Source: Yuukianura sp. NJ FZ-2021
Taxonomy: Eukaryota
DNA length: 64,000 bases
Assembly (NCBI GenBank): GCA_046563655.1
Contig: CM102285.1
Span: forward strand, 13,950,001-14,014,000
Direction of reading: 5' to 3'
The translations under genes and the position numbers were made by a program. Under the pieces are notes generated by a model that saw only the letters and a program-made list of their open reading frames with translations, was not told the origin of the DNA and made no database searches. Positions 7,619-53,524 of the stretch are shown in pieces (positions within the stretch are counted from its first letter, which is position 1; each line of letters begins with the position of its first letter).

Positions 7619-8308
7619 ATGAACTTCATTTCTACTGGTGCTGTCATCTTATACGTTCTGCTTACTGCCAAAAATGGTATGATTTTGATTCACGATAAAA
7701 TCTGACATGTTTTGAGATAAAAGATGTAAGATGAAAGATAAAATATTTCTGAGTTGAATTCTGAAGCGTAAATAACTTTCACTTTTTAGCTTCAGTTGCA
7801 GGAGATGGGACGCTTCCAGAAAAAGGTGAAAGTTCTGGAAAATCCGGTGCTGACGTGGTGAACTTACCAGGTGGTGACATGGTAACCTTAGCTGGTGGTG
7901 ACATGGCAACGTTAGCTGGAGGTGACATGGCAACCTTACCTGGTCTGTGCCTGTGTCAAGAGTTTCGGTGTGACAATGGTTCCCGGTGTCTCCACAAATC
8001 CAAGGTTTGTTCAGGAATTCCGGAGTGTCCAAATTCGGAAGATGAGAATTTAGAGCGTTGTGACGCTGCAAAACGGAAGTTGCACAAAGTTCCATGCAGG
8101 TAGAAAATGCAAAGATTTTTGAAAAGTGTTTTTGAAATTTTGATTTTGAATAGAAACTTTTGTTTTTTATTTTTAAAAATGAAGCAAAGACGAATTCAAG
8201 TGCAAGTTTGGCGGGTGCATAGATTTGAAGAAAGTTTGCAACAACGAAATCGATTGTTGGGGAGGAGTGGATGAAGCGACGGATTTTTGCAACTGGGTTA
8301 ATAGTTGA
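7619..8308 (+). CDS. Small secreted protein: signal peptide, GGDM(V/A)TL(A/P) repeats, two LDL-receptor class A domains; exons 7619-7676, 7790-8099, 8185-8308
   Basis: Exon 1 MNFISTGAVILYVLLTAKN is hydrophobic; splices stay in frame; CQEFRCDNGSRCLHKSKVCSGIPECPNSEDE..C and CSKDEFKCKFGGCIDLKKVCNNEIDCWGGVDE...C fit LDLa spacing; AATAAA at 8345. Confidence 0.8.
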
Positions 8309-8386: not shown

Positions 8387-9055
8387 TTACCGTAAATCCT
8401 TCGTAATTAACTTACACATGATCGGTTTCGGTAAAATCTTACACGTCGAAATTAGGAATTTTGCGAATGAATGTACTTTTGAGTACCGTAAATCTCCAAC
8501 TTTAGCTTCCTTTTTATTCCACCTCCATTTTTGGGCGTACCAACTCCTCAGTGGCGCCAAACAAGCATGGGCAACTTCGTGACTCTTGACATGCGCATAA
8601 CACGAAATCAGGAATCCATTGACCACTAACGTTCCACTTTTGGTCAACGGAGCAAACGCACCTTGCAGAACTTCCCGCTTAACGTTTGTCACTGCTGCAG
8701 AGATGACAGTGTTGTCATTTTTCTGAATTCTGATCAAAGAGTCACCGATTTTGACATTTTTCGCTGCCAATGTTTGTCCACTGTCCAGAAATAGTAAGTG
8801 TTCTGGAGAAATCAACAGCCGATGATGACCTTTGACCTCAATTGACACAAATTCTACCAAAGGTTCTGGATCATAGTGGATGTAGGTGTAAAACTTCGTT
8901 GAAGAAACTGTTGGCGCCAATTTCTGCTTGAGGCTTCTACTTGGAAACTTTACGGTAACAACGTCGTCGAATTCCCGCAGTTCCGGAATTTTCTGGACAC
9001 CGGATTTCAGAGTCCAGACTTCCGCTGACGACGGGAAACAACAACAAATACACAT
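8387..9055 (-). CDS. Stand-alone Hedgehog-type Hint + sterol-recognition (Hog) domain protein 1, with a 5-aa N-terminal peptide MCICC
   Basis: CFPSSAEV start, block B ISPEHLLF, AKNVKIGD, GAFAPLTKSGTLVVNGFLISCYA, SRR-like HEVAHACLAPLR...HSFAKFL; single open 222-aa frame. Confidence 0.92.
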   Translation of the reverse strand: MCICCCFPSSAEVWTLKSGVQKIPELREFDDVVTVKFPSRSLKQKLAPTVSSTKFYTYIHYDPEPLVEFVSIEVKGHHRLLISPEHLLFLDSGQTLAAKNVKIGDSLIRIQKNDNTVISAAVTNVKREVLQGAFAPLTKSGTLVVNGFLISCYAHVKSHEVAHACLAPLRSWYAQKWRWNKKEAKVGDLRYSKVHSFAKFLISTCKILPKPIMCKLITKDLR

Positions 9056-9234
9056 CGGAATCTTGTGGCCGCTATGAAATGACTTGCCAAGGTCAAATCA
9101 AGAATTTCGTAAAAGTAAATTTACGAATTTACAGCGCGTAAATTTACGAATTTACGAAATACGTCGCACAGAGTTAAAGGTACAGAAATTTAGCACTAGG
9201 ATTATTCACTGTTGACGGTTGAGTTTGGATTTTG

Positions 9235-9287
9235 GAATGAGGCCAGTTACTCAATATGTTCGTGTCTTTTATACCGGAAGGAACATT
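9235..9287 (-). promoter_or_regulatory. Core promoter of Hog gene 1: ATGTTCC motif, TATAAAAG (TATA 9273-9267), initiator TCATTC (9240-9235)
   Basis: Motifs read on the minus strand; same architecture as the paralogue; no ATG between the initiator and 9055. Confidence 0.65.
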
Positions 9288-10174
9288 TACACGGATGATT
9301 ACACTTTTTACAAGTAAGCATGCTACATACTACGCAATTGAAGCTAATTCAAGTATGAGTAATCGAGATAAGTTGAATAACTAATTATTGTTTGTAAGTT
9401 AAAAAATTATTAACATTAATCACGTTTAACCGGCTCTCACAGTTTTGATGTTTATGGTATAACCAAACGCAAAACAAAGTGAAGATTTTCCTGTTTACAA
9501 TTTTTCGTTATACGAAATATTAGTTAAAATTTTTCACCGTAAATTTTTGTAATTTTTGTCTATTGCGACAAAAAGTTGCGCAACTTCTGTAAGTACCATC
9601 CGCGTCTAATACGAGCTGAAAAATCACGAAGTTGAAAATATTTCCAACAATTCTTGAGTAGTTTAGTTTGAAAATCCATTGACGTAGGCGTGCGAAAATT
9701 TTTCAATAATTAAAAAGTCCGTTTTGCTTTTACGCCGTACGTGATCAATTATTTTGAAAAGTTGCACGAAACAGTGAAATTTTGCCATAGGTCAGCGAAA
9801 GGTTTCCAATTTCAAAATTCAAAAATTCAAAAAATTTCGAACAATGAGGTTATGCAAAATGCATTTTCTGGTCTTCTTGAGAGAAATCCTTAAGACCATC
9901 GGAATTCCCCTTTGTGTTTAAAGTTTAGTTAAATTAATTGTTCAAAACAAACTAATTCTGAGAGCAATTTTAAAAGCAAAACTGTTTGTTTCAAAAGACA
10001 TGAAATCGAAATGTGAAAAAATTTCCAGGTTTTCGTGAAATGAAATGACGTATACGTGAGAATCAGGTGAAGTTTAATTCCTTTTTCGTGTTTATTTGAA
10101 TTACTGAACAAAATTTAATTGTTCTAAACCAAACAATTTCTCAGTAGTTCTGTAACTCTTGTGTCTTTTTATTA

Positions 10175-10855
10175 TTATGCCCGCGTAATTGTGAGAACTT
10201 TCTCCGTAATCGGGCTGGGAATGACCTTGGACGTGGAAAGCAAAAACTTTGCAAATCCGTTCATTTTGCTGAACTTCAAATTTTCCTTGTTTTTGGCAAA
10301 TTTCAGGGAATTCCTTGGCGAAGGTGACCTCATGGAGTACCACGTTCGGAGTGGAGCCATGGCGGCATGAGCAAGGTCATGACTCTTGACATGCGCATAA
10401 CACGAAACCAGGAATCCATTGACAATCAGAGTTCCACTTTTGGTCAACGGTGCAAACACGCCTTTCAGCACTTTCTTGCCAATGTTAGTCACGGTAACCG
10501 GGACAACGGAGTAGTCCTGTTCCTTGACCTTCAGCAGAATGTCACCGACCTTCACGTTTTTGGCGGGAACTGGTCGTCCATTTGCCTGGAACAGAAGATG
10601 TTCCGAGGAAATCAAAAGGTCATGACCTTCTTCTGTTCCAATTGACACGAATTCTGCTGTAACTTCTGGGTCATAGTGTAGATAAGTGTAGAATTTAGTT
10701 GCGGAGACTGTTGCTGAAGATGAAGTCTTGTTTTGACCTAGGTCAATTGTCAAGATTCGCTCAAATGGTCTCAGTTCTGGAATTTTCTGGACACCGCTTT
10801 TGAGTGTCCAGACTTCAGCTGACGATGGAAAGCAAAATGGTAGACAGAGACACAT
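10175..10855 (-). CDS. Stand-alone Hedgehog-type Hint + sterol-recognition (Hog) domain protein 2, with a 7-aa N-terminal peptide MCLCLPF
   Basis: CFPSSAEV, ISSEHLLF, AKNVKVGD, GVFAPLTKSGTLIVNGFLVSCYA, HDLAHAAMAPLR; CAACAATG start context; clear paralogue of 8387-9055. Confidence 0.92.
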   Translation of the reverse strand: MCLCLPFCFPSSAEVWTLKSGVQKIPELRPFERILTIDLGQNKTSSSATVSATKFYTYLHYDPEVTAEFVSIGTEEGHDLLISSEHLLFQANGRPVPAKNVKVGDILLKVKEQDYSVVPVTVTNIGKKVLKGVFAPLTKSGTLIVNGFLVSCYAHVKSHDLAHAAMAPLRTWYSMRSPSPRNSLKFAKNKENLKFSKMNGFAKFLLSTSKVIPSPITEKVLTITRA

Positions 10856-10959: not shown

Positions 10960-11009
10960 GAATGAGCGTGATGTTTAAACGGTTCACAACTTTTATAGAA
11001 AGGGAACAT
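10960..11009 (-). promoter_or_regulatory. Core promoter of Hog gene 2: ATGTTCC motif, TATAAAAG (TATA 10997-10991), initiator TCATTC (10965-10960)
   Basis: Same motif order and near-identical spacing as gene 1; no ATG between the initiator and 10855. Confidence 0.65.
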
Positions 11010-47396: not shown

Positions 47397-49498
47397 TCAG
47401 TATCTGTCGTTTACCAAGTAAGGTTTGATGTCTACTTGGCCATGGAACGTATTCAAAACGTTGACACACGCATCACTTGGTTCGTACGCATCGTATGTGC
47501 TGGTCAAAATTTCGATCTTGTCCAGTTGTGGAATCTGTTTGAGAGCCGTCAGGTGAATGACCGCCAACACAATCGACGCCGGAGTGTTTGCGAATTTTAG
47601 CGTTTTCAAATCTGGATTTTCAAAAAATCAGAAATCAGTTTATCAAAAATTCATAAAAAATCAAAAACGAGTTTAAAAATTTGAAACATACTGCACAAGT
47701 TCCCAAGTTTTGGACGAGCTGGACCGTCACCACGGTCGAGATTAGTTTCAGCTTGTTCCAAATTGGATGGAAGGATCATTTCCAATGAAGAGTCTTTGTT
47801 CAGAATTGGCCGAATCCCACCGGTAATCTCCTCCCACCAAACAGTCACCAAATCATCATTGAAACTAAAAACATACGGGCCTCTGTAATTGTAGTCGTCG
47901 CCATCCACTTCTTCATTGTCGTCCGTGCGATCATTTTCTACAATATGATCATTCTCTCCAATTTCGTCATCACTACTGACGTCGTTGTCATGAATCCCAT
48001 CATTGTCGTCATTGTCTTCAAAGTCATCAATAATGTCATCCCGATCTCGATCCAATCGTAGACCCTGGAACGTGACCTTGAGCTGTGTCAAGCTCAACAT
48101 GTTGGTCAACACAGGGCCCAGCAGAGCATCAATTCCAGTCACCATGTCCAATTTCGTCACGTTTGGGAATTTCGTTGACCAATCGTATGTTGGCACCGTC
48201 GCTGGAATTGGAAATGGTAGTTGCTCAATCAGTTCTGGGTGTCCATCAATCACAAGTTCTTGGACATTGGTAAAGACTTGGTCAGGATTTAATTGGTTTC
48301 CGTGTGGACCAATCACCAACTTCCGAAGAGATGGAACCTGACCTTGTGAAATCAACGGTGTCATTTCAAAAATCGCTGGACGATCTTCTTCATCTTCATC
48401 GATCCGATAGCCCCGCATCGTGAATCCAAAGTCCAATTCCGTCAAATACGACATTTCAGACGGCAGAGTCAGTGGGATGTTTGGTCCCCAGGAGATCAAC
48501 TTGAGTTTGGTCATGCGCGGAGACTGTGTCAGTTTCTGGATCCATTCGGAAATGAAATTATTGCGTCGGGCAACCATGGCGGCTTTTGGTTCAAACATAT
48601 CTTGTGGTTCAAGTATCAAGTACTTTGGTTTGAGATCTGAACGCAACAGTTCCCGAAGCAGGTAGTTTCTATTTTCCTCCGGTTCTTCGTTCAGAACGAC
48701 TTCGAGCCTCCCAAGGTCAACAGATCCGAACCTTTGAAAAAATTCACGAACGGCAGAGCGATTGGTGGTGTACTGTTTTAACGTAAGGTTGCCAGTACGC
48801 AAATTGGGGCATTTCTTGACAATTTCATTCAGCAAGGGAATGATGGTGGTGTTAACGCTTGCGTCAAAGTGTTCCAAATTTTCAAACTGTTGTAATTCAG
48901 CAACAGGAATTGCGTTGCGTTCACGAAAACGTAGGTGAGGTCGACCGTAAATATTATCCTCTTCGACCGACAATTTGACCAGATTTGGAAAATTGGTCAA
49001 AAATGTCTTTACCTTCGCCTGCATTTGATCATTAGCTTGACGCATACTGGATTCCGCACTGCTCCGAGTACGTAGACAACAGAATCCGTCGCCAGTCGTG
49101 ACGTGAATCTGGAGGGATTGTACGCTTGCGCCGTGCACCCCGGCGAATCTTTGAATGAGATCCAAAGCAATGCGCATGAGCTTGACGTCAACAGTGGCGA
49201 AAGAATAGAAATTTGACGTCGCTGGCAAGGGTTCCGGAAAGACACGAATGAAGTTAGTGATTTGATCGCTGGTGAAGAATTTTACGACGCATTTTTTGCT
49301 GCGTCGAATGACGTGGTAGGCTTCATTTTCCCAGTCTTTGTTGACAAGGCGTGCAGTTAACTGATCAGGAAATGGCAAACGAGCGATGACCTCTCGCAGA
49401 ATGAGACAATCTAGCATCTAGAACAGAAACGATCTTGTGTGACATTGTTCGCTGTGGTACGATAGTATACAATTCGTTACCTTTACGTACGACTCCAT
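47397..49498 (-). CDS. F-box/LRR-like protein, paralogue A; exons 49498-49481, 49417-47692, 47611-47397
   Basis: N-terminal F-box-like LILREVIARLPFPDQLTARLVNKDWENEA; degenerate LRRs (FPNLVKLSV, CPNLRT, VPSLRKLVI, FPNVTKLDM); acidic insert; in-frame GT-AG introns. Confidence 0.75.
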
Positions 49499-50271: not shown

Positions 50272-52389
50272 TCAGTCTTCGTTGTAGTTGAACCCGTCGT
50301 TTACCAAGTAAGGTTTGATTTCTACTTGGCCATGGAACGTATTCAAAACGTTAACACAAGTTTCAGCTGGTTCATACGCATCGTATGTGCTGGTCAAAAT
50401 TTCGATCTTGTCCAATTGTGGAATCTGTTTGAGAGCCGTCAGGTGAATGACCGCCAACACAATCGAGGCGGGCGTGTTTGCGAATTTTAGCGTTTTCAAA
50501 TCTGGAATTTCAAAAAATGAGAAATCAGTTTTATCAAAAATTCATAAAAAATCAAAAACGAGTTTTAAAATTTGAAACATACTGCACAAGTTCCCAAGTT
50601 TCGGACGAGCTGGACCGTCACCACGGCCGAGATCAGTTTCAGCGTGTGCCAAATTGGATGGAATCATCATTTCCAATGGAGAGTCTTTTTTGAGAATTGG
50701 CCGAATCCCACCGGTAATCTCGTCCCACCAAACAGTCACCAAATCATCATTGAAACTAAAAACAATCGGGTCTCTGTAGTCGTCGTCATCCTCTTCATCA
50801 TTGTCGTCCATGTGAGCATTGCCTTCAATGTGTTCATTGTCTTCAATTTCATCATTGTCATCACTACTGACATCATTGTCACCAAAGCCATCGTCATCAT
50901 TATCATCAATGTCATCATTGTCGTCAATGTCATCCCGATCTCGAAACAATCTTCGATCCAATCTGAGACCCTGGAACGTGACCTTGAGGTCAGTCAATGT
51001 CAACATGTTGGTCAACACTGGACTTAGCAGAGCATCAATTCCAGTCACCATGTCCAATTTCGTCACGTTTGGGAATTTCGTTGACCAATCGTATGTTGGC
51101 AGAGTCATTGGAAGTGGAGATGGCAGTTGCTCAATCAGTTCTCGGTGTCCATCAATCACAAGTTCTTGGACATTGGTAAAGATTTCTTGTGGATTCAATT
51201 CGTTTCCCTGTGGACCAATCACCAACTTCCGAAGAGATGGAACCTGACCGTGTGAAATCAATGGTGTCATTTCAAAAATCGCTGGACGATAATCATCGTT
51301 TGAAGAATACATTCGATAGCCCCGCATCGTGAATCCAAAGTCCAATTCCGTCAAATACGACATTTGAGATGGCAGGGTGAGAGGTATCTTTGGTCCCCAG
51401 GAGAACAACTTGAGTTTGGTCATGCGTGGAGACTGTGTCAGTTTCTGGATCCATTCGGAAATGAAATTATTGCGTCGGGCAACCATCGAGGCTTTTGGTT
51501 CCCACATCATGCGTGGTTGAAGCATCAAGTACTTTGGTTTCAGATTTGAAAGTAGCAGTTCCCGAAGCAGGTTGTTTCTTTTTTCCTCCGACATGTTCAG
51601 AACGATTTCGAGCTTCCCAAGGTCAATAGATCCCAACTTTTGAAAGAATTCACGAACGACAGAGCGATTGGTCGTGTACTGTTTTAACGTCAGATTTCCA
51701 GTACGCAGATTGGGACATTTCTTGACAATTTCATTCAGCAATGGAATGATGTTAGTGTTAACGCTTGCGTCAAATTGTTCCAAATTTTCGAATTGTTGTA
51801 ATTCAGCAACAGGAATTGCGGTTTTTTCACATAGGTAAGTTCGATCCTCTTCGACCGACAATTTGACCAGTTTTTTAAAATTGTTCAAAAATGTCTTCAC
51901 CTTCGCCTGCATTTGATCATTAGCTCGACGGTTACTGGATTGTGCACTGCTCCAAGTACGTTTACAACCGAATCCGTCGCCAGTCGTGACGTGAATCTGA
52001 AGGAATTGTACGCTTGTGCCGTGCCCCTCTCCGAATTTTTGAAGGAGATCCAAAGCAATGCGCATGAGCTTGACGTCAAAAGTGGCGAAAGAATAGAAAT
52101 TAGACGTCGCTGCTGGCAATGGTTCCGGAAAGACACGAATGAAGTCAGTGATTCGTCCGAGGGTGAAGAATTTTACGACGCATTTTTTGCTGCGTCGAAT
52201 GACATGGTAGGCTTCATTTTCCCAGTCTTTGTTGACAAGGCGTGCAGTCAGCTGATCAGGAAATGGCAAAAGAGCGATGACCTCTCGCAGAAGGAGACAA
52301 TCCAGAATCTAAAACAGAAACGATTTGTGTTGCCTTGTTCGCTATAGCACTAATAGTATATAATCCGTTACCTTTGAGTATGACTCCAT
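50272..52389 (-). CDS. F-box/LRR-like protein, paralogue B (tandem duplicate of A); exons 52389-52372, 52308-50583, about 50501-50272
   Basis: Highly similar to paralogue A in protein, introns and flanks. Confidence 0.75.
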
Positions 52390-52909: not shown

Positions 52910-53524
52910 TCAAGACTTTGGTTGTCCAGAACTTTTGCGTTTGTCCCACGCAGCTTTGATGTAGGGAATTGTGACAATTGCTACTGGTAGACGGATGAGT
53001 TCCATTACTTCATTGATGGCCACAGCACCAGCGAAATTCCCCATTTTGGGATTGATTTTATTGAGGTCGTAGTAGTCGGCGAGTGGGGTCATCCGAAGCC
53101 ATTCCACAACTCCCGCCTCTCCGACCAATCCGCTTTCAAGTACAGCATAAACGGAAATCATTCCACCAAAGTAGAGTGTAGAGTACCAAATGAAGAATGG
53201 AATTCCATATTTCTTGAACAGTGCTTTCACGCCTAAACCACCAGTTTTCGTTTTCAGCTTCCCTTCAACTTCAGCCACCGTTTCTTTGTACTGTTCTGTA
53301 AAAGATTTGTTGGGTTCAATACTTGCTTTTTCATCTCTCACGTACTTCGCAGTCTTCTTATTGCTGTCTGCGCCTGGGCCAGTCTTTATTGAACTTGTCG
53401 CTAAGCACCGATACAGCGATAAAGATCTTGATCCTTGGAGAATTAAATTCAAATCCGATCTGAATCTCACATTTACTGCAGCAGGAATTCCAGGGTTCTG
53501 ATGACTGTCAAACAATAAATCCAT
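52910..53524 (-). CDS. FAM210/DUF1279-like mitochondrial membrane protein; 5' end uncertain
   Basis: KALFKKYG + TM (IPFFIWYSTLYFGGMISVYAVLESG) ... GNFAGAVAINEVMELIRLPVAIVTIPYI pattern; basic N-terminal region. Confidence 0.6.
   Translation of the reverse strand: MDLLFDSHQNPGIPAAVNVRFRSDLNLILQGSRSLSLYRCLATSSIKTGPGADSNKKTAKYVRDEKASIEPNKSFTEQYKETVAEVEGKLKTKTGGLGVKALFKKYGIPFFIWYSTLYFGGMISVYAVLESGLVGEAGVVEWLRMTPLADYYDLNKINPKMGNFAGAVAINEVMELIRLPVAIVTIPYIKAAWDKRKSSGQPKS

Follow-up and report, generated by a model that had tools for sequence, protein, structure and literature searches.

What can a Hedgehog-type autoprocessing domain be for when almost nothing stands in front of it to be processed? 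The question is raised by two neighbouring genes on the minus strand of a 64,000-nucleotide stretch of contig CM102285.1 from Yuukianura sp. NJ FZ-2021 (assembly GCA_046563655.1, positions 13,950,001 to 14,014,000), the whole of which is referred to here as the window. Each gene encodes a stand-alone Hog domain, comprised of a Hint core and SRR-like helices, in which the catalytic cysteine (Cys1) is preceded by a leader of only five (gene 1) or seven (gene 2) residues. The reading favoured here, at a probability of about one half, is that these are two independently transcribed single-exon genes for cytosolic Hog proteins that would release themselves from their leader by passing it to a sterol.

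Two complete Hog domains behind minute leaders

The initial annotation described two paralogous, uninterrupted and complete Hog open reading frames (ORFs), and both lie on the minus strand at exactly the coordinates it gave (Table 1). Their products begin MCICC/CFPSSAEVW (gene 1) and MCLCLPF/CFPSSAEVW (gene 2), the slash marking the bond before Cys1, and each matches the Pfam family Hint (PF01079) far above the cut-off of 29.7 bits, at 107.6 bits (E-value 8.9e-31) for gene 1 and 125.1 bits (E-value 3.8e-36) for gene 2. No other Pfam family rises above its own cut-off in either ORF; the Hedge domain (PF01085) is unmatched in both proteins, and Intein_splicing reaches 16.3 bits, below its cut-off of 35.8, with a C-extein absent and the protein ending after the helical tail. 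Searches of the window by tblastn with 16 queries (Hedgehogs, MACPF-Hint, AIG1-Hint and other proteins) found no Hedge, MACPF or AIG1 exon: the two Hint ORFs are the only matches at E < 0.01, and three Hedgehog queries match just the Hog part. The absence of a Hedge or other N-terminal domain, as first annotated, is thus borne out, as is that of a signal peptide, since by inspection just five to seven residues lie ahead of the first Hint strand.

The sequence motifs on which the annotation had relied (CFP, S-x-x-H and APLTKSGT..VNG..SCYA) are all present. Across 16 aligned family members, the residues equivalent to C8, F9, H60 and H86 of gene 2 are invariant, the tail is conserved likewise, and a Ser or Thr stands three residues ahead of H86 in every member, giving S-x-x-H in both window genes. 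In a phmmer comparison with PDB sequences, the His of an LHYD motif falls opposite the Asp in the FLDRD of human SHH, and opposite the His in 6TYY, a D46H mutant from Drosophila, such that the general-base position, Asp46 in Hedgehog, is occupied by His (H60) in all 16 members and by Asp in none. The active site of the Hedgehog autoprocessing domain (HhC) is described as C1, D46, T69, H72 and C143, with D46H still autoprocessing in cells (PMC12054796; papers given by PMC number are cited here and below from the portions of their text that are available), and D303H is reported to keep structure and activity and to broaden the substrate range (PMC9163320). The activity of these engineered proteins suggests that the general-base function may be kept with His60. 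As the equivalent of Cys143 is retained (SCYA) in both window genes, their Hedgehog-like active site is, to judge from its residues, complete, with His as the general base.

The predicted structure agrees with this assignment. An AlphaFold2 model has a mean predicted local distance difference test score (pLDDT) of 80.7 and a predicted template modelling score of 0.75, the Hint β-core exceeding a pLDDT of 90, and four helices are predicted after that core, where the initial annotation had named SRR helices. The best PDB matches found by Foldseek are 6TYY (E-value 7e-12) and 1AT0 (E-value 2e-11), at TMt 0.86, with inteins next. A search for a longer form of the protein gave four matches, none of them close; the best, a butterfly Hedgehog, is 38% identical by BLASTP from Cys1 to within four residues of the Hedgehog C-terminus, the tail included.

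The two proteins are 55% identical over their full length, and their ratio of nonsynonymous to synonymous substitution (dN/dS) is 0.225 at a dS of 1.57 by the Nei-Gojobori method, well below the neutral value of 1 that the initial annotation had named as evidence against its proposal. By region, the ratio is 0.27 in the Hint core, while the proportions of nonsynonymous and synonymous differences (pN and pS) are 0.35 and 0.84 in the tail and 0.11 and 0.57 in the first 30 alignment columns. Both paralogues are, on these ratios, under purifying selection. A scan of metagenome contigs gave 512 pattern matches, of which one was confirmed: a 2480-bp contig (L001) encoding the closest relative, at 51% identity, against which dS is saturated and reading frames are still intact. 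The stretch shared without change by the paralogues from Cys1 onwards, given as 17 residues at first, in fact runs to 22 (CFPSSAEVWTLKSGVQKIPELR), in front of which the leaders do differ, as had been claimed. Recent gene conversion was ruled out as the source of this identity by the many synonymous differences (about 11 synonymous positions differ in the first 30 columns), and these 22 residues are instead kept by selection. Direct repeats between the two genes are confined to their coding sequences, at a spacing of 1794-1800 nucleotides (nt).

A family of micro-leader Hog proteins

A word-based protein search returned 16 matches, eight of them (P0001-P0008) Hint-only proteins of 206-240 residues, and an exhaustive HMMER search gave 4473 proteins with E ≤ 1e-3, of which 619 pass a threshold of 1e-10 and 7 one of 1e-30. 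The tree and the counts that follow draw on the 150 listed from these 4473 matches. When 171 sequences were aligned by phmmer, Cys1 could be placed in 112 and lay within the first 12 residues in 29; a quick IQ-TREE search (LG+G4) was then made on 111 Hog rows, leaving out one duplicate and the 59 sequences without an assignable Cys1, the majority of which lack the N-terminal Hint part. Genes 1 and 2 fall within a 14-row clade with an approximate likelihood-ratio (SH-aLRT) support of 95, together with P0001, P0002, P0021, P0023, P0008, P0022/P0167 and P0003-P0007. A Met lies 1-7 codons before Cys1 in all 14 rows, and no long protein occurs inside the clade among the matches listed. Twelve rows begin at this leader Met, and in the remaining two a prokaryotic gene caller placed the start farther upstream, in P0001 by reading through an in-frame TGA and in P0002 by use of a GTG start, each having a Met four codons before Cys1. 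The family of micro-cargo Hog genes with variable cargo that the initial annotation had envisaged is thus found, in the form of this clade, in which the leaders vary.

The next node out (SH-aLRT 96) adds P0024 (MVGFCL/C) and four long proteins with the Pfam architecture GTPase(AIG1-like)-MACPF-Hint or MACPF-Hint, the nearest long relatives among the matches listed, and P0026 (MCLPLGIPC/C) and P0122 (MGICC/C) are placed just beyond it, so that three micro-leader proteins stand just outside the clade. No hydrophobic, signal-type stretch is found in the N-terminal 40 residues of the three long relatives that start with Met.

The leaders themselves are alike in composition. Twelve distinct leaders together hold 49 residues after the Met, of which 20 (41%) are Cys, compared to 1.8% in the Hog bodies, the rest being Leu, Val, Phe, Ile, Pro, Gly and Ser. 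Asp, Glu, Lys, Arg, His, Asn, Gln and Thr, which make up 37% of the Hog bodies, are entirely absent (0/49). The naive probability of this composition, about 1e-10, is overstated because the sequences are related. The second residue is Cys in seven leaders, Val in four and Gly in one, and while length (1-8 residues after the Met) and sequence vary, composition remains constant, down to one member, MC/C, whose released part would be a single Cys. Small second residues permit removal of the initiator Met, N-terminal Cys clusters among hydrophobic residues are typical S-acylation anchors of cytosolic proteins, and dual acylation typically occurs where a protein opens with Met-Gly and continues with Cys residues.

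These proteins resemble the HhC of Hedgehog (Drosophila 1AT0 and the D46H mutant 6TYY) in Pfam family, as top structural matches, and in the Cys1-Phe-Pro, [ST]xxH and SCYA Cys features, and differ in having a leader of five to seven residues in place of a signal peptide and Hedge domain, in the family-wide substitution of His for the Asp base and in never having Gly before Cys1. The window proteins are, moreover, presumably cytosolic, whereas Hedgehog is processed in the lumen of the endoplasmic reticulum. A closer parallel in architecture is hog-1 (W06B11.4) of Caenorhabditis elegans and C. briggsae, a cross-species conserved protein consisting of Hog only, with no trace of a signal peptide or N-terminal domain (PMC1636047, PMC2362128), treated by its authors as a nematode protein that has lost its N-terminal domain (PMC2362128). 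The window genes fit the same description, comprising a Hog domain only, lacking a signal peptide and being conserved across species, and the C. briggsae entry, as given in the supplement of PMC2362128, has a leader of about 10 residues and likewise a His at the D46 position. In that same supplement, however, charged residues occur in the hog-1 leader, Cys does not, and Cys is missing from the C143 position, differences that, in a comparison made outside the tree, argue for an independent origin. The window family, in contrast, keeps the full Hedgehog-like site and tail, and clusters with the MACPF-Hog proteins.

Secreted Hog proteins of Enoplea (XC Shog1, XC Shog2 and Ts Xhog3) are predicted to release peptides of 15, 25 and 34 residues (PMC2362128) and possess signal peptides, unlike the family described here, with its 1-8 residues after the Met. 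Hog domains without a signal peptide are also reported in the cytosolic AIG1-like-Hog fusion GmGIN1 of Glomus (PMC2362128) and in AIG1-Hint genes of snails (PMC7053062), and these, like the GTPase-MACPF-Hint proteins, carry large cargo domains where the window genes carry none. The statement in the initial annotation that hh-related proteins usually bear a secreted N-terminal domain therefore holds as a rule with published exceptions, namely hog-1 (PMC1636047) and the AIG1-Hog proteins (PMC2362128, PMC7053062). Open-access papers and bioRxiv yielded no description of Hog genes with a 1-8-residue Cys-rich leader or of their kinship to GTPase-MACPF-Hog proteins, and no treatment of MACPF-Hint fusions. 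While Hog-only genes as such are known (hog-1), a conserved micro-leader Hog family has apparently gone undescribed so far.

Anchor, peptide or exon: what the leader may be

The favoured mechanism would begin with translation of the hydrophobic, Cys-rich leader in the cytosol, where its Met would probably be removed, the second residue being Cys, Val or Gly family-wide, and where it would probably be S-acylated, which would hold the protein at a membrane from the cytosolic side. Cys1, aided by the S/T-x-x-H motif, would then effect an N-to-S acyl shift at the bond between leader and Cys1, with Cys152 (the C143 equivalent) perhaps holding a branched thioester, and His60, in place of the Asp base of Hedgehog, would activate the hydroxyl group of a sterol bound in the SRR-like tail. 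Transfer of the leader to this sterol would free the Hog body of approximately 24 kDa, the net outcome being a single-turnover, sterol-dependent self-release from the membrane that would leave behind a tiny, multiply lipidated peptide-sterol ester. Release from a lipid anchor is favoured because the leader is conserved in composition only, and a cytosolic setting is suggested by the lack of signal-type stretches in the nearest long relatives and of signal peptides in the published AIG1-Hog proteins (PMC7053062, PMC2362128).

Several features weigh against this proposal. The C143 position, reported as essential in SHh (PMC12054796), is Ser (SSYA) in 4 of the 16 aligned relatives, which may mean that mechanism or activity differs in part of the family, and the four C-terminal helices (residues 159-225) are modelled at a pLDDT of 47-78, such that the SRR-like tail is of low confidence. 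The residue before Cys1 is Cys, Val, Phe, Ile or Leu and is Gly in none of the 12 leaders, compared to the GCF of Hedgehog, and a β-branched residue there may slow the acyl shift. Five relatives have the Cys-free leader MVFS[IV], and S-acylation cannot therefore be universal in the family; both S-acylation and Met removal are inferred from leader composition and general rules, and the T/G-rich leader codons could instead reflect a constraint at the level of DNA. Finally, the core promoters discussed below are consensus matches and the transcription starts putative, and all relatives are metagenome gene calls, with upstream DNA read for L001 only.

By the same chemistry, the released leader could itself be the functional product, a sterol-esterified and possibly S-acylated micro-lipopeptide, with the Hog body as its disposable enzyme, in the manner of ribosomally synthesized and post-translationally modified peptides (RiPPs). 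Borosin-type precursors offer an example of a single-turnover enzyme covalently fused to a short peptide substrate, the likeness being one of analogy only as chemistry, kingdom and order of fusion all differ. The conservation of active site and tail would suit such a system, as would close paralogues that differ in their leaders and agree in the adjoining 22 residues, and HhC is reported to accept arbitrary N-terminal peptides (PMC4695875). It is considered unlikely nonetheless: leaders that range from 1 to 8 residues after the Met, with composition alone retained, are more in keeping with a lipid anchor than with a ligand for some receptor, MC/C would yield a lone Cys, a cytosolic protein lacks an export route, and some 220 residues would be spent for each product of 1-8. 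A peptide product thus ranks below the membrane anchor.

Alternatively, the Hog domain may not cleave but have taken on another role in the cytosol, whether binding sterols or lipids, acting in regulation, or serving the long GTPase-MACPF-Hog relatives as partner or decoy, with the leader as a permanent anchor. The missing Gly at position -1, the Ser replacements at C143, the similar lack of Cys at that position in hog-1 (PMC2362128 supplement) and the placement of the family as sister to multidomain proteins all lend this idea some appeal. Even so, it is doubtful, since a role without cleavage would make it hard to explain why Cys1, Phe2, His60 and His86 are invariant in 16/16 members and why, within the paralogues, constraint is strongest in the first 22 residues at the scissile bond.

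Quite unlikely, in turn, is a variant in which the genes encode ribosomally made precursors that would give rise, in the cytosol of the animal, to very small peptides, lipidated or cyclised. Here the Hog domain would make a C-terminal thioester on a Cys-rich core of 1-8 residues, whose capture by a sterol would give an S-acylated peptide-sterol ester, and whose capture by its own N-terminal Cys or side-chain thiols after Met removal would give a head-to-tail cyclic peptide or a thiolactone. If true, enzyme-fused RiPP precursors would have a counterpart in animals, its core being variable and its catalyst conserved.

The DNA upstream of both genes is consistent with translation that starts at the leader Met (Table 1). 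Each has a TATA box, TATAAAAG, followed at a fixed distance by an initiator (Inr)-like TCA[TC]TC; of six copies of TATAAAAG in the window, against 2.6 expected, two are the minus-strand copies upstream of the Hog genes. The putative 5' untranslated regions (UTRs), of about 183 nt (gene 1) and 108 nt (gene 2), are free of ATG in both cases, and in-frame stops lie upstream at -45 in gene 1 (TGA, 15 codons) and at -39 in gene 2 (TAG, 13 codons). The same signals recur in L001, with TATAAAAG at -134, TCACTC at -102 and AATAAA after the stop codon, the spacing from TATA box to TCA[TC]TC being 32-33 nt at all three loci. Its leader codons before Cys1 are ATG-TGC-TTG-TGC-GTT, an in-frame TGA lies just four codons upstream of that ATG, and one upstream ORF of two codons is present. 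This contig is syntenic with the window, for in both an LDLa gene, the same one, runs convergently towards the 3' end of the Hog gene.

Table 1. Features of the two Hog genes, in window coordinates (gene 2 protein numbering for active-site residues)
Feature	Position	Strand	Remark
Gene 1 coding sequence	8387..9055	minus	single exon, 222 residues + stop; leader MCICC, then Hog (Hint + SRR-like helices)
Gene 1 leader including start codon, M-C-I-C-C	9041..9055	minus	from sequence and alignment
Gene 1 catalytic Cys1 codon	9038-9040	minus	directly after leader codons
Gene 1 TATA box, TATAAAAG	9266..9273	minus	218 nt upstream of gene 1 ATG
Gene 1 Inr-like TCATTC, putative transcription start	9235..9240	minus	33 nt past TATA box start
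Gene 1 AATAAA	8352..8357	minus	32 nt past first base of stop codon
Gene 2 coding sequence	10175..10855	minus	single exon, 226 residues + stop; leader MCLCLPF, then Hog
Gene 2 leader including start codon, M-C-L-C-L-P-F	10835..10855	minus	from sequence and alignment
Gene 2 Cys1 codon	10832-10834	minus	directly after leader codons
Gene 2 TATA box, TATAAAAG	10990..10997	minus	142 nt upstream of gene 2 ATG
Gene 2 Inr-like TCATTC, putative transcription start	10960..10965	minus	32 nt past TATA box start
Gene 2 AATAAA	10168..10173	minus	overlaps end of stop region
Gene 2 active-site residues	C8, H60, S83, H86, C152		gene 2 protein numbering

It might still be argued that each ORF is the final exon of a longer gene, whose upstream exons, for a signal peptide and a cargo domain, are spliced on just before or within the leader. 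The host is a eukaryote with introns, a YAG that could be read in frame precedes the ATG by 16 nt in gene 1 and by 36 nt in gene 2, and many 'micro' Hog calls of metagenomes elsewhere in the tree look like exon fragments of longer genes. Against this, the sole YAG within 70 nt of the L001 ATG precedes the in-frame TGA, such that translation from a coding exon joined there would end at this stop, and no AG occurs between ATG and Cys1 at gene 1, gene 2 or L001. The in-frame upstream translations of genes 1 and 2 have no common similarity, TATA box and Inr keep their spacing, the tblastn searches revealed no cargo-domain exon in the 64 kb, and all 14 clade rows keep their nearby Met with no long member among the matches listed. 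Those 'micro' rows elsewhere, which have long proteins as their partners and probably represent exon fragments, show that a micro start is no general artefact of gene calling, and also that single calls are not trustworthy. The short start, five or seven codons before the catalytic Cys, looks real from these sequence features, and an upstream coding exon is judged unlikely on the strength of the TATA box and Inr, the in-frame stops and the L001 orthologue; the artefact as a whole is very unlikely. Least credible of all, notwithstanding a tandem, intronless arrangement and no known cargo, is that the genes are decaying partial duplicates of a Hedgehog or Hog gene, as functionless pseudogenes or retrocopies, in view of a dN/dS of 0.23 at a dS near saturation, reading frames that are unbroken in the two genes and in their distant syntenic orthologue, and catalytic residues invariant throughout the family.

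The putative 5' UTR of gene 1 also contains an exact 18-nt direct repeat, GTAAATTTACGAATTTAC, in two copies 23 nt apart (window 9115-9155), the core motif of which is not enriched across the whole window. The motif TTCGTAAAT upstream of gene 1 has 36 matches in the window against 28 expected, and thus no enrichment.

Surroundings and significance

The gene content of the window is that of an animal, including actin, an ankyrin gene with ZU5, LDLa modules and an Fz-LDLa-trypsin gene. The 3' exons of an LDLa-domain gene with GGDM[AV]TL[AP] repeats (7765-8300, plus strand) converge on gene 1 and have their counterpart at 1595-1924 of L001, and since the same gene adjoins the Hog orthologue there, the neighbourhood is conserved. 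An endogenous viral origin was ruled out by this synteny with an animal LDLa gene and by the absence of viral relatives: scans with the family alignment gave 130 pattern matches in viral contigs, and 46 in contigs of prokaryote genomes, with none confirmed in either. Further along the window, two tandem, intronless and paralogous ORFs of 588 codons (47651-49417 and 50542-52308, minus strand) bear an acidic Asp/Asn-rich segment near the C-terminus, the former being without a Pfam match. A complete single-exon gene for a FAM210A/B-like protein of 204 residues (52910-53524, minus strand; Pfam E-value 1.9e-8) found no relative in the word-based protein search, which suggests sparse coverage of the source lineage in public protein sets. 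No tRNA and no Rfam match at the gathering threshold was found in the window.

Among the wider set of Hog relatives, P0029 and P0070 are GTPase-MACPF-Hint proteins and P0040, P0046 and P0114 are MACPF-Hint proteins, all of metagenome origin and apparently without signal peptides; with the exception of P0046, these are the long proteins nearest to the micro-leader clade among the matches listed. The MACPF-Hog architecture, as read from sequence, implies a pore-former whose C-terminus could receive a sterol. A further protein of 473 residues, P0025, has two tandem and complete Hint modules in two matched stretches totalling 497 bits by Pfam.

To our knowledge, the roles of Hog domains beyond Hedgehog are largely unknown, with sterol transfer shown for Hedgehog only. 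If the proposed reading is true, the two genes and their relatives would be a natural minimal unit of substrate and enzyme, a leader of a few residues joined to a Hog domain, and a natural counterpart of the engineered swap of Asp for His as general base. The chemistry would in that case be used on the cytosolic side of membranes, alongside GTPase-MACPF-Hog relatives, and may provide a sterol-dependent switch for membrane release or a source of peptide-sterol conjugates. There is also a practical warning, in that short intronless genes of this type were not found in the named protein records searched. These enzymes would be of relevance to the study of both Hedgehog autoprocessing and protein lipidation.

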